A DNA stretch of 64,000 nt from Octopus vulgaris. Taxonomy: Eukaryota. The notes beneath the pieces are model-generated. The model was not told the DNA's origin and searched no databases. It saw nothing but the letters and a program-made list of their open reading frames with translations. The position numbers and the translations under genes are program-made. The stretch lies in assembly GCA_951406725.2 (NCBI GenBank), contig OX597817.1, positions 137,082,001-137,146,000 on the forward strand. Reading direction: 5' to 3'. This document shows, piece by piece, positions 26,675 to 58,856 of this stretch; position 1 is the first letter of the stretch, and every line of letters begins with the position of its first letter.

Positions 26675-26722
26675 ATTTTTGATAAGGTTCGTTTTCTCAA
26701 CAAGAACCGAAACATGTAAAAT
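26675..26722 (+). ncRNA. Minimal type I hammerhead ribozyme, U3-A8 core variant, in an orphan Penelope 3' end
   Basis: ATTT-TTGATAA-GGTTC-loop-GAACC-GAAA-CATGTA-AAAT: stem I ATTT/AAAT, stem II GGTTC/GAACC, palindromic ACATGT stem III, GUA site; downstream sequence resembles 58860-58915. Confidence 0.7.
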
Positions 26723-26789
26723 TGCTAAGGAAATTAAAATTTATCTTATATAGTGGCGTTTTCAAACTTCTTTTATATATATATATCCA

Positions 26790-27070
26790 GTTGAATCAGA
26801 TCAGCGGAACAGCCAGCTCGTGAAATTAACATACAAGTGGTTAAGCACTCCACTGACATGTGTACCTTTAACGTAGTTCTCGGGGTGATTTAGCGTGACA
26901 CAGTGTGTCACAAGGCTGGCCCCTTTGAAATACAGGTACAAAAGAAACAAAGAGTGATAGAAGGTTGTGGTGAAAGAGTACAGCAGGTGTCGCCACCACC
27001 CCTGCCGGAGACTCGTCGAGTTTTAGATCCTACGACTGCGAGGCCACTGCCCTGACCGCTGGGCCTCCAC
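26790..27070 (-). mobile_element. Third SINE-like family, composite fragment
   Basis: Minus strand starts GGAGGCCCAGCGGTCAGGGCAGTGGCCTCGCAGTCGTAGG (tRNA A-box-like head); bounded by microsatellites. Confidence 0.5.
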
Positions 27071-27124
27071 ACACACACACACACACAAACATATATATAT
27101 ATAAGTGGTTTTGTCTCTAATTTA

Positions 27125-27970
27125 ATATAATATATATATATATATATATATATATATATATATATATATACATACATATATATATACATACATATATATA
27201 TATACATACATATATATATACATACATATATATATACATACATATATATATACATACATATATACATACATATATATATATACATACATATATACATACA
27301 TATATATATATACATACATATATATATATACATATATATATACATACATATATATATACATACATATATACATACATACATATATACATACATATATATA
27401 TATACATACATATATATATATATATATATATATATACATACATATATATATATATATATATATATACATATATATATATATACATATATATATATACATA
27501 CATATATATATATATATATATATACATATTATATATGTATATATTGAGAGGGAGAAAGGTGGTAAGGAAATGACAAACAGGTGAACAGGTGAGAGAAAAA
27601 TAGAATTGAATGAGGAAGTAAAGGTATGTAGAAAATACATAATGCATTGATAGTTTATATGTATGTATATATAAATATTTGTATATATATATATATGCAC
27701 ATATGTATATATATATATGTATATATATATATATATGTATTGATATGTATATGTATATATATATGTATATGTATATATATGTGTATATGTATATACATAT
27801 ATATATATTGATATGTATATGTATATATATATGTATATGTATATATATGTATATACATATATATATATTGATATGTATATGTATATGTATATATATGTAT
27901 ATATATGTATATATATATATATATATATATATATATATATATACATATATATATATATATATATATATAC
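27125..27970. repeat. Long degenerate (TA)n/(TACA) microsatellite arrays
   Basis: Direct reading; a similar array is at 37545-37965. Confidence 0.95.
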
Positions 27971-28411
27971 CTTATATTTACTCACACACACATGTTGTCT
28001 GTGCGCGCGCGCGTGTATGTTTTCATCTTTATAAATTATAGTGTGAATCCGTATGTGTGTACTAATATGATGTCATTTCCGATACATAAGAAAAAGAAAA
28101 AAAAACAAAAACAAAAACAAAAGAAACAAATATACTTACCTGAGAAAACTCTAATGGCTTTTTCTGCAGCATCTTAGCTGAACATAACTAATGTGTTTTT
28201 TGTATGAAGAGAACAGTTAAGAAGTAGGATTTCCTGGCAGAACGAAGAGCATCTTCATCTTCACTCTGTCAACCATCCAAGAGAAATATGCAAAGTGAAG
28301 ACAAACGAAGAAAACTTTGTAAGGAACAAAAATTGGGAGAAATATGATGGAATTCATAATATTGTCTCTTGAGGCGTATATGTGTATGCGAGTGTATGTA
28401 TGCATGCATAT

Positions 28412-28815
28412 ACTCTTTTACTCTTATCTGGTTCAGTCATTTGACTGCGGCCATGCTGGAGCACCGCCTTTAGGGGAACATATTGACCCCAGGACTTAGA
28501 GCGTAGTCCTTATTCAATCGTTCTCTTTTGTCGAACCGCTATGTTACGGGGACGTAAACACACCAGCATTGGTTGTGAAGCGATGGTGGGGGATAAACAC
28601 AGACACACATACACACATTCATATATATATATATATATATATATATATATATACGACGGGCTTCTTTCAGTTTCCGTCTACTAAATCCACCCACAAGACT
28701 TTGGTCGGCCTGAGACTATAGCAGAAGGCACAAGCCCAAGGTGCTACGCAGTGGGACTGAACCCGGAACAATGTAGTTGGTAAGCAAGCTTCTTACCACA
28801 CAGCCAATCCTGCGC
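28412..28815 (-). mobile_element. SINE family A, near full length
   Basis: Reverse complement of the family A head, core and tail. Confidence 0.85.
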
Positions 28816-56190: not shown

Positions 56191-57123
56191 TATTTTTATG
56201 AATATTACATTTATTTATTTTTTAAATTTAACGGTGTGATGGAGGGTAGGGAAGAAATACAGAAAGAAAGCGTTTATATATTTAGAAAGATTGAGAGGCT
56301 GATAGAAAAGAGGAAGATAGAGAGAGTGGAAGTATGTATTTATAATAGAGGTTGAGGGCCTGAGAGAAGAAAGACTGTGTGTTGGAGAGAAGTGAAAAAG
56401 TGCGTCTATACACACACACACACACATACACACACACACACACACACACACACACACATATTTATATATATATATATATATATATATATATATATATATA
56501 TACATATATGTATGCATACAGCAATATATACTATATTTTGGAAGTTTGAGGGGCTGAGAGAAGGACGGTGCAATGGAGAAGAGAAAAAGAGAAAGAGAGA
56601 GAGAGAGTGTGTGTGTGTGTGTGTGTGTATGCATTTATAGAGACGAAACAGAGAGAGAAAAAGAGAAAAGAGGGGAAGAGAGATTCTCAGAGAAGAATTA
56701 TGGGATGATAGAGTGAAGTAAAGAGATAAAGAGAGAAGATGAGTGTCTATATCTTAAGAGATACGAAATAGTGAGAGAAAGAGAGAAACGAAAAAAGTGA
56801 GAGTGTGATGAAAAAAGATGGTGTGATGGAGTGAAGTAAAGAGACGGAGAGAGAGAGAGAGAGAAAGAGACAGAAAGAAGAGGGGGAGCGTCTACATATT
56901 TAGAGAAAAGCAATAGCGAAGAAAAGAGGGAAAGGGGAAATGACGGTGTGATGGAGAAGAGAGAGTAAAGTTATGCAAATTCTTGAAAAGGATTCAACTT
57001 GGATATCGAATAATAAAGGAATAAATAAATATATACCTTCTATATATATATATATATATATATATATATATTTATAATAGGATTAGCTCGTATACGAGTA
57101 GGTATATATTTGTAAAAAATTAA

Positions 57124-57933
57124 GCTAGAAGGATTTGCACCATAATATCAGACACAAACACCCGACACACACGTCTCCAGGAACTTAGAACCACACTCAC
57201 AAATAGAAACTATCCACAGCCCCTAATAGACAGTGCAATCCAACGGGTACTTAAATTAAGTATAGAAGACCTGAGACAAACAAAACCAAAAAAGAAAGAA
57301 CAATTAAAAACCCTTCCCTACATCTCTACACACAACCCACTCAACAATGAGGCCTTCAACACCATACTACAAAGCACAGCCCTACTAAAGGGAGACCCAA
57401 AGATGAACCGGATCCTCGAAACACACACCATCATTAAAAGTAAACGGCAACCAAAATCCTTGAAAAGGATTTTAACCCAAGCTACACTGCACTCAACATC
57501 AACCACAAAACCAGCAGTTAGAAAATGTGGAAGGCCCAACTGCGGAATCTGTGTCATCTTGAAAGAAGGATCAGAATTTATACTGGAACAAGGCCACCAG
57601 TTCACCATTAGAACAAACTTCACCTGCGCATCAGAAAACTTAATTTACGTCATAACATGCGCAGGCTGCAATAGGCAGTATATAGGCCATACAAAAAATA
57701 GCTTACGTAACAGGATGGCGGTGCATAAATCACAAATTAGAAACCCTGATTACCGCAAAATACCGGTCAGCGGACACATAGATAGATGTGCTGGAAATGT
57801 AAATCCGAAATTTACAACTAACCCGCTCTATAAATTCAGTGACAACGCAACCTTCACACAACGCCAAAATAAAGAACTATATTTCATAAAAAAATTTAGA
57901 CCAAGTTTAAACACCCTGGGCCAGGAATACTAA
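57124..57933 (+). CDS. C-terminal part of the Penelope-like ORF (thumb, Zn linker, GIY-YIG endonuclease)
   Basis: ARRICTIISD...NRNYP...CGRPNCGIC...FTCASENLIYVITCAGCNRQYIGHT...RNRMAVH...KELYFIKKFRPSLN; uninterrupted frame. Confidence 0.88.
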   Translation, partial: ARRICTIISDTNTRHTRLQELRTTLTNRNYPQPLIDSAIQRVLKLSIEDLRQTKPKKKEQLKTLPYISTHNPLNNEAFNTILQSTALLKGDPKMNRILETHTIIKSKRQPKSLKRILTQATLHSTSTTKPAVRKCGRPNCGICVILKEGSEFILEQGHQFTIRTNFTCASENLIYVITCAGCNRQYIGHTKNSLRNRMAVHKSQIRNPDYRKIPVSGHIDRCAGNVNPKFTTNPLYKFSDNATFTQRQNKELYFIKKFRPSLNTLGQEY

Positions 57934-58102
57934 AACAAAAGATAAGTCCTCCGAAAAGGAGAACCAAATTTCACCACGGCCGCTACTTCAAACAGACACT
58001 CACTCTGACGGAAATATGCATTAGTAAAAAAAGGAAAAAAATTCTTTCGTGCAAATCTGACCCTGATACATACGATACAGCTAAGGGTCAGACCCGATTC
58101 TG

Positions 58103-58473
58103 ATTGGTCAACAAGTTGATGACGTCTAGCTCTGCTAGAATGGACAGGATACAAACAGGGGACAGTCATTAGTCAGAATATTGATGACGTCCTTTTCTGC
58201 TTGAATAGTCACCTAACAAGTACAGACAGGGGGCAGATCTAATGTAGCTATAAGTCGTGATTGGGCAGAATCTGAATGACGTCCCGCTATGCTTGACTAA
58301 CGAAGCGACTGGTCAAGACAGGAAACAAACAAGAGGGAGTTATAATGCAGCGATTGGTCAAAATAATGATGACGTCCCGTTCCACTTGATTAAAGCCACC
58401 TAACGAAACGATTGGTCAAAACATTGATGACGTCACGCTACGCTAGATTGACCACCTAACAGGCATTATAAAA
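58103..58473 (+). promoter_or_regulatory. Pol II promoter-like array: 5x [inverted CCAAT - 12 bp - CRE-like TGACGT] plus TATA box
   Basis: ATTGG (one ATTAG) at 58103, 58168, 58260, 58353, 58411, each followed after 12 nt by TGACGT at 58120, 58185, 58277, 58370, 58428; TATAAAA at 58467. Confidence 0.75.
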
Positions 58474-58808
58474 CCGAGCATTTCACAAAAAATCACTAGA
58501 ACCACCCAGCGAACTTCCACCATGGGTCATCACAATTGCTTAAGGTAAAAATGAATTCCTCGCTCTTTCGGAAACATCAATCTTCTGTATTGACCGCTTT
58601 CCACCACTTTGATCTGTTTTTTGTATTGAATACGTATCGCCACCGTGGGCCACTGCATCGAACACTTTGAACATATACTTCAAACTATATATCAACTATA
58701 CATGAACTATATATCAACTATACATGAACTCTAAGATGTCTGACTCCGTTGTGTATTATAAATGAATTTCTTGTGTTTGACGGCATGAGCTGTCTCTTTT
58801 TATATATA

Positions 58809-58856
58809 ACTTTTTTTGATAAGGTTCATTTCAGGAACTGAAACATGTTATAATGT
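58809..58856 (+). ncRNA. Minimal hammerhead motif, U3-A8 variant, partly decayed
   Basis: TTGATAA(58816-22)-GGTTC-ATTTCAG-GAACT-GAAA-CATGTT; homologous to 26675-26722. Confidence 0.6.

Follow-up and report, generated by a model that had tools for sequence, protein, structure and literature searches.

Predicted U3-A8 minimal hammerheads at 3' termini of Neptune-type Penelope elements in Octopus vulgaris

The window analysed here, a 64-kb stretch of Octopus vulgaris DNA (contig OX597817.1, positions 137,082,001 to 137,146,000), raises the question whether motifs with the core UUGANAA in place of CUGANGA are hammerheads of Penelope (PLE) elements in which a U3-A8 pair replaces C3-G8. The original prediction placed three such motifs (26675 +, 48082 -, 58809 +) at Penelope 3' ends and took the swap to be compensatory and functionally selected. 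All three are present. We hold, with a probability of roughly 85%, that they are U3-A8 minimal type-I hammerhead motifs at the 3' termini of two defective Neptune-type PLEs and of one end-only remnant, and that in ancestral active families they likely cut tandem RNA as palindrome-paired dimers, the cleavage being argued by analogy with published PLE hammerheads.

A U3-A8 descriptor, composed post hoc when the motifs were already known, matched the window exactly three times, with cores beginning at 26679 (+), 58816 (+) and 48118 (-), versus 0.02 matches per window expected by chance (100 local dinucleotide shuffles, 98 with no match and two with one). A relaxed search of the window returned six matches, three with U3-A8 and three with C3-G8 cores, and none with a mixed C3-A8 or U3-G8 core. 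When the window was scanned with a covariance model trained only on 18 C3-G8 PLE hammerheads from elsewhere, 25 matches were returned; site 1 ranked first (18.6 bits), site 3 third, and site 2 24th, which was not significant (Table 1). As predicted, canonical searches overlook the motifs: with the threshold at E<=10, Rfam still assigned neither site 1 nor site 2 to a hammerhead family, and none appeared among the 150 of 249 matches listed for the whole window; PLE hammerheads are undercounted by CUGANGA-only or Rfam scans. The listed Rfam matches of the whole window were microsatellite miRNA noise, and repeat-finder output was dominated by microsatellites. Viral contigs contained neither PLE relatives nor a match to the site 1/3 pattern.

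Table 1. Features of the window, with positions numbered from its first nucleotide.
Feature	Position	Strand	Basis or detail
C3-G8 hammerhead, second copy, in inverted 5'-truncated partner of same Hydra-type PLE	5668..5745	-	relaxed search
Canonical C3-G8 minimal hammerhead, 3' end of Hydra-type PLE	12035..12112	+	long loop II, palindrome ACAUAUGU, 4-bp GC stem I
Decayed LINE RT C-terminal fragment (non-PLE), 5' of site 1	26077..26545	+	67% identity to LINE fragment 59352-59717
Solo PLE 3'-end (pLTR) stub with site 1, short TA run at end	26668..26786	+	71% identical to 58805-58923 (125 nt)
Site 1, predicted minimal hammerhead, U3-A8	26675..26722	+	descriptor; covariance model E 0.006
Site 2, predicted minimal hammerhead, U3-A8	48082..48122	-	descriptor; not significant in covariance model (E 8.8)
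Neptune-type PLE ORF, frameshifted and with internal deletion, 5' of site 2	49202..50504	-	RVT_1 match, tblastn
Short inverted copy of site 3 element's own 3' terminus, at 5' truncation point	57103..57130	-	89% over 28 nt to 58895-58922
5'-truncated Neptune-type PLE ORF (thumb, CX4CxxC linker, GIY-YIG with CCHH), 5' of site 3	57124..57933	+	GIY-YIG E 6e-7
Site 3, predicted minimal hammerhead, U3-A8	58812..58853	+	descriptor; covariance model E 0.64

Each site carries the core N3UGAN N8A...GAAA...UH with a Watson-Crick 3-8 pair and a 5-bp stem II. At site 1, the 4 bp of stem I (26675-78/26719-22) lead into the core UUGAUAA (26679-85), stem II (26686-90/26704-08) with the usual G10.1-C11.1 closing pair and a 13-nt loop, GAAA, the palindrome ACAUGU and H17 (A26718), after which the RNA is predicted to be cut. 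Site 3 has the same core sequence (58816-22) and palindrome, a closing G10.1·U11.1, H17 at U58849 and a stem I paired at 3 of 4 positions. At site 2 (core UUGACAA, 48118-12) a C·C mismatch at 10.1/11.1 precedes the 5 bp of stem II, the palindrome is AGCGCU, and stem I is weak, with only 2 bp; H17 is A48086, and the predicted position, 48082, corresponds to the motif's 3' terminus. The palindrome duplexes were calculated at -4.6 (ACAUGU) and -8.3 kcal/mol (AGCGCU). Folded as single strands, the motifs did not exceed shuffles in stability (z -0.3 to 0.7), which is expected because they need a partner. The predicted homodimer of site 1 consists of stem II plus an intermolecular palindrome duplex; for sites 2 and 3, the homodimers of lowest energy adopt folds other than the hammerhead. 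H17 precedes the main (TA)n run by 55 nt at site 1, by 67 nt at site 3 and by ~128-140 nt at site 2, in agreement with the predicted nearness to this boundary.

The proposed reading as minimal type-I hammerhead motifs at PLE 3' ends, their U3-A8 pair being compensatory, is supported, and two parts of the original prediction had to be narrowed. The motifs are two independent instances rather than three, sites 1 and 3 being homologous. On the sense strand, sites 2 and 3 do lie downstream of PLE ORFs, whereas site 1 is placed at a PLE end because its surroundings are homologous to the terminus of the site 3 element. That an intact Penelope ORF ends in site 1 was ruled out, the coding sequence upstream being a LINE RT fragment.

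The elements of sites 2 and 3 are called Neptune-type by their protein motifs, the RT trees having been built with loci that lack clade names. The relevant part of PMC8557442 defines Neptune, a clade of EN+ PLEs, by an RT, a CX2-5CxxC linker and, at the C-terminus, a CCHH-bearing GIY-YIG. Here the RT is followed by a C-terminal GIY-YIG with CCHH, the linkers read CGRPNCGIC and CGDGRCGIC, and the C and H columns are invariant. In the ORF of site 2 the N-terminus is fused to the RT palm/thumb, followed by a CX4CxxC linker and GIY-YIG, and tblastn with full-length relatives covered residues 9-48 and 356-752. The ORF of site 3 has 43 longer relatives, the best at 57% identity and most with RVT_1. 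Contigs from sequencing runs diverge from the window before 57123, the 5' truncation point. Long contigs from two runs (X1 and X4) match across site 3 with the same core, and none of the 40 of 121 differences listed for contigs of four runs falls inside the motif.

The C3-G8 hammerhead at 12035, overlooked in the original prediction, serves as an internal control. A Nematis-like identity for its element (5.6-12.2 kb) was replaced by Hydra-type on the clade motifs given in the relevant part of PMC8557442. A further C3-G8 match at 8688 (-), antisense within the Hydra-type RT and without stem I, was taken as chance, though the covariance model ranked it second.

Outside the window, 44 PLE loci were chosen by protein alone. 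Their cores were C3-G8 in 21 cases, U3-A8 in one and mispaired or wobble in three (G·G in L004, U·G in L017, C·U in L018). Strict matches were found in 16 of the 44, all on the sense strand (0.9 per shuffled set); 14 of these follow the ORF match at a distance of 86-448 nt, and six have a U·U closure of stem II. Stems I and II and the palindrome covary among 18 outside hammerheads, with 81.5% paired versus 33-43% when slid, in rows that had been chosen beforehand for pairing.

A core with two coordinated changes might also arise by AT-biased neutral decay (C>T, G>A) of C3-G8 hammerheads freed from cutting, in which case compensation would be only apparent. The window has 38% GC, both changes are transitions toward AT, three outside loci have mispaired cores, and N7 is C at site 2, so G8>A could there be CpG decay; moreover, in the relevant part of PMC11167929, hammerhead mutants of one PLE reconstituted in vitro had no effect on insertion. 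Neutral decay, however, predicts more single-change than double-change cores, and the window contains no single-change core. When site 1 is compared with site 3, core and stems agree at 25 of 26 positions and the 3' flank at 39 of 54 (one pair, Fisher p 0.015), the X1 and X4 contigs share the core of site 3, and a U3-A8 descriptor already run on Schistosoma mansoni gave ~1,300 matches (PMC4209133). We regard decay as quite unlikely.

It is less probable still that the fold serves another role, such as binding of a PLE protein or palindrome RNA-RNA pairing near the start of reverse transcription, with marginal catalysis. Metazoan minimal hammerheads have very low in vitro activity and may have other functions (PMC4209133), and at sites 1 and 3 the element ends 55-67 nt beyond H17. 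For the reconstituted PLE, the relevant part of PMC11167929 reports no RNA-seq reads ending at the cut site and a cleavage that needed protein, in addition to insertion without need of cleavage. The preserved Watson-Crick 3-8 pair and the UGA, GAAA and UH residues are, on the other hand, requirements of catalysis, and the same part of that study describes an Anolis PLE hammerhead that cleaves, with C3/G8 rescue.

Site 1 sits in a stub of ~120 nt, and the LINE RT fragment ~130 nt upstream on the same strand is presumably CR1/L2-like; the RT relatives of LINE fragment 59352-59717 within the window carry RVT_1. A non-autonomous chimera of LINE and hammerhead that includes site 1, as the lack of PLE coding sequence between the two would allow, instead of the insertion of a PLE stub next to an old LINE, is the least probable reading of all, since the other LINE RT fragments of the window (tblastn; ~51.8-53.6, 59.0-59.8 and 60.8-61.6 kb) lack a hammerhead and the stub terminus matches that of the site 3 PLE.

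For the preferred reading, palindrome-paired hammerheads of once active families, published PLE hammerheads suggest how cutting might have proceeded. Two copies in a tandem transcript would pair through the 6-nt palindrome to form stem III, U3-A8 would stand in for the C3-G8 tertiary pair, and slow cleavage, possibly protein-assisted, would follow H17. The core is conserved between two diverged families, and selected function is a reasonable conclusion for the ancestral ones. The present copies are truncated, solo and partly decayed; being solo and partly decayed, they are probably inert relics. Counting against the preferred reading are the weak stem I and the non-hammerhead homodimers of sites 2 and 3, the C·C and the covariance score (E 8.8) of site 2, the loose 3/8 pairing in L004, L017 and L018, and, in PMC11167929, both the insertion independent of the hammerhead and the lack of reads ending at the cut site. 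To these is added a full pairwise mutant scan of another hammerhead, where, in the relevant part of PMC9901934, only a G3-C8 swap rescued and other doubles in the region were low.

What is new is only that U3-A8 seems to have originated repeatedly. A tree uniting the elements of sites 2 and 3 in one clade was rejected (p-AU 0.0013), and the site 2 element groups with a C3-G8 locus (L009) at 100/97. Since the two do not form one clade, we lean, from these sequence comparisons, towards U3-A8 having arisen independently more than once in these Neptune-type lineages, the route leading perhaps through a U3·G8 wobble step. A stronger version, with repeated independent fixation in the Neptune lineages of one host via tolerated U3·G8 and the host favouring the weaker U-A as a brake on cutting of element RNA, is improbable, and host-level selection for U3-A8 is speculative; if true, these lineages would form naturally replicated cases of compensatory evolution within the active site of a ribozyme.

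The novelty implied for the swap did not hold, and the three sites are fresh examples of a core variant already published in 2011 and 2014, leaving the existing picture of hammerhead chemistry and PLE biology unchanged. Among the papers listed in a literature search, none was by its title on Octopus Penelope hammerheads; tables of Lünse et al. may already list such variants. Natural U3-A8 covariation was reported by Perreault et al. 2011 (PMC3088659), whose relevant section calls it active in vitro per an earlier study and does not tie the examples to PLEs; the natural 10.1/11.1 mismatch described there is U·U, unlike the C·C of site 2. The C3-G8 minimal hammerheads of metazoan PLEs with a small palindromic helix III (PMC4209133; relevant parts of Lünse, Weinberg & Breaker) share stem II, the GAAA-4-nt palindrome-UH arrangement and the location 3' of the ORF. 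This architecture is also that of the 21 outside loci and the window's Hydra-type element, and the three sites differ from it in having U-A instead of C-G. Also close are the hammerheads of S. mansoni Cercyon PLEs, in which U3-A8 was first described for PLE minimal hammerheads (Cervera & De la Peña 2014, PMC4209133). They share the UUGANAA swap, the type-I topology, a short AU-rich stem I (weak here at sites 2 and 3), the lack of tertiary loops and the location in PLE terminal repeats, mostly solo from truncated elements. The Cercyon motifs have a bare 2-nt stem III, in contrast to the palindrome of 6 nt here, and at sites 1 and 3 A9 is followed directly by 10.1, with no nucleotide inserted. 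The PLE clade and the host lineage are different too, which extends the published variant to Neptune-type elements from a further lineage of animals.

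All three U3-A8 hammerhead motifs of the original prediction were present in the window, and their interpretation as a compensated hammerhead core (UUGANAA instead of the canonical C3-G8 core, CUGANGA) was correct. A descriptor that left positions 3 and 8 free and required GAAA, a 6-nt palindrome and four or more base pairs in stem II gave four matches, three with U3-A8 and one with C3-G8, against means of 0.02 for U3-A8 and 0.13 for all cores in 100 local dinucleotide shuffles. Site 1 was the cleanest of the three. An independent covariance model, built solely from 18 C3-G8 hammerheads of Penelope-like elements (PLEs) outside the window, returned 25 matches, with site 1 at rank 1 (E 0.006), site 3 at rank 3 (E 0.64) and site 2 at rank 24 (E 8.8); its second-best match (E 0.29) was the hammerhead-like sequence within the Hydra-type PLE. 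An Rfam scan of sites 1 and 2 gave no hammerhead match at E<=10.

Hammerhead motifs (core starts), PLE features and neighbouring repeats in the window
Feature	Position	Strand	Description
Site 1, U3-A8	26679	+	stem I 4 bp; stem II 5 bp; A at predicted cleavage position H17
Site 2, U3-A8	48118	-	C·C at 10.1/11.1; stem I 2 bp
Site 3, U3-A8	58816	+	stem II closed by G·U; stem I pairs 3/4
Hydra-type PLE	5625-12155		RT 7861-9534; endonuclease 9510 to ~10130; one frameshift
Canonical hammerhead	12039	+	CUGAAGA
Inverted copy	5741	-	
Hammerhead-like sequence	8649-8695	-	C3-G8 descriptor match at 8688; CUGAAGA, stem II, GAAA, palindrome AAGCUU; without stem I; antisense within Hydra-type RT frame
5'-truncated ORF	57124-57933	+	GIY-YIG domain; ~880 nt upstream of site 3
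Fifth PLE fragment	44213-45200	+	carries RT thumb plus GIY-YIG; C-rich; distant from the remaining PLEs
Hairpin	26560-26635		small, imperfect; between LINE fragment and site 1 stub
Tandem duplication	48216-49016		~290 bp, 72% identity; in long 3' UTR of site 2 element; CA/CT microsatellites embedded
Inverted repeat	50677-51186		38 bp (97%), flanking ~430 bp; 5' side of site 2 element; adjoins (TA)n run; may be a 5' inversion

The Hydra-type PLE, the fourth in the window, served as an internal control. Its canonical hammerhead and the inverted copy, found with a relaxed descriptor, have an unusually long loop II (~40 nt), the element being accompanied by a 2.3 kb inverted, 5'-truncated partner. 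The ORF aligned to the PLE profile (E 8e-9) and exhibited DKT, a CxCX5C linker, CxxC and CxH, described as marks of the Hydra clade (PMC8557442). Both core types are thus present in the window, and no mixed cores occurred among the six relaxed-descriptor matches there.

The proposed location at Penelope 3' ends held for sites 2 and 3, which lie downstream of PLE-type ORFs, and for site 1 by homology only. A PLE ORF was absent upstream of site 1, where a decayed LINE RT fragment was found instead. The site 1 hammerhead sits within a ~120-nt stub sharing 71% identity with the terminus of the site 3 element, so that the three sites represent two independent sequence types, as had been claimed. 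Core and stem positions of sites 1 and 3 are identical at 25/26 and the 3' flank at 39/54 (p 0.015), modest evidence of purifying selection. The 43 longer relatives of the site 3 ORF combine an RT with an endonuclease and carry CCHH residues and a CX4CxxC linker, by these motifs a Neptune-type layout (CX2-5CxxC-type linker and CCHH; PMC8557442). The truncation point of the site 3 element bears a 28-nt inverted copy of its own 3' end. Among the matches listed, this stretch was found in at least 20 sequencing runs from 11 studies, and contigs of four runs contained several variant copies; long contigs from X4 and from X1, which may be the window's own source, matched across the hammerhead, and a copy in one contig of X11 had G10.1-C11.1 together with an improved stem I. 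The minus-strand ORF ~1.1 kb upstream of site 2 is of the same Neptune type; it is frameshifted and has an internal deletion. No hammerhead was found with the fifth PLE fragment, and the sequence downstream of that fragment appears LINE-derived.

Outside the window, 44 PLE loci (42 from metagenomes and two from genome contigs, including some near-duplicates) were retrieved on the basis of protein alone. A strict scan matched 16 of them, all on the sense strand, compared with 0.9 matches per shuffled set; 14 matches were located 86-448 nt downstream of the ORF match and two upstream. The predicted enrichment at PLE ends was thus observed for the hammerhead motif class in these 44 loci, U3-A8 itself being a minority state (14 C3-G8, one U3-A8 in L003 and one G3·G8 in L004). 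Many of the 28 missed sequences stop too soon past the ORF. Relaxed inspection of 22 loci (L003, L004 and 20 misses having more than 200 nt of downstream sequence) yielded a further seven complete C3-G8 motifs, four flagged by script and three by eye, together with one motif cut by the contig end, one U3·G8 (L017) and one C3·U8 (L018); in single copies, 3-8 pairing has exceptions. A U·U mismatch takes the place of the closing G10.1-C11.1 pair of stem II in L001, L005, L006, L019, L021, L023 and L044. Two animal-type PLEs with hammerheads, L043 and L044, come from short contigs assigned to bacterial genome bins and are probably host contamination.

A tree built from 43 thumb/endonuclease sequences paired the site 2 element, a long, frameshifted branch, with the C3-G8 locus L009 (support 100/97), clustered site 3 with five other sequences (P0001-P0005) and placed L003 elsewhere. 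An 18-row subset required at least two core-state changes and rejected sites 2 and 3 as one group (p-AU 0.0013), as well as sites 2, 3 and L003 (p-AU 0.008), the one-group test having been picked after the first tree was seen. An apparent independent origin of U3-A8 could also result from lineages swapping their 3' ends. As for the swap itself, a plausible route would lead from C3-G8 through a U3·G8 wobble to U3-A8, suggested by the U3·G8 cores of L017 and of a Saccoglossus family representative (2014 supplement of PMC4209133).

We consider it highly probable (roughly 0.85) that the three motifs are genuine PLE hammerheads, likely cutting as dimers in their parent families; anatomy and position come from the sites themselves, the cutting role from the literature. 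Single units of metazoan minimal hammerheads are reported not to cut, dimers and trimers to do so weakly, and processing of tandem precursor RNA is the proposed role (PMC4209133, PMC6765202). In folding predictions the site 1 homodimer formed stem II in each copy as well as the intermolecular palindrome, and sites 2 and 3 favoured other dimer folds. The solo copies in the window are probably inert. A study on an Anolis PLE reports unimpaired in vitro insertion by hammerhead mutants and cleavage that required added protein (PMC11167929), which counts against a central role of the hammerhead. For a different hammerhead, scanned by mutagenesis, rescue was obtained by the G3-C8 swap only (PMC9901934), and the U3-A8 core may therefore be slower-cutting.

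Covariation of C3 and G8 to U3 and A8 has been described in several natural hammerheads (Perreault 2011, PMC3088659). Cervera & De la Peña (2014, PMC4209133) retrieved ~1,300 matches with a U3-A8 descriptor and present UUGAUAA and UUGAAAA families in their Figure S3. The core of sites 1-3 is hence a variant already described, the same as that reported there for a Cercyon PLE.
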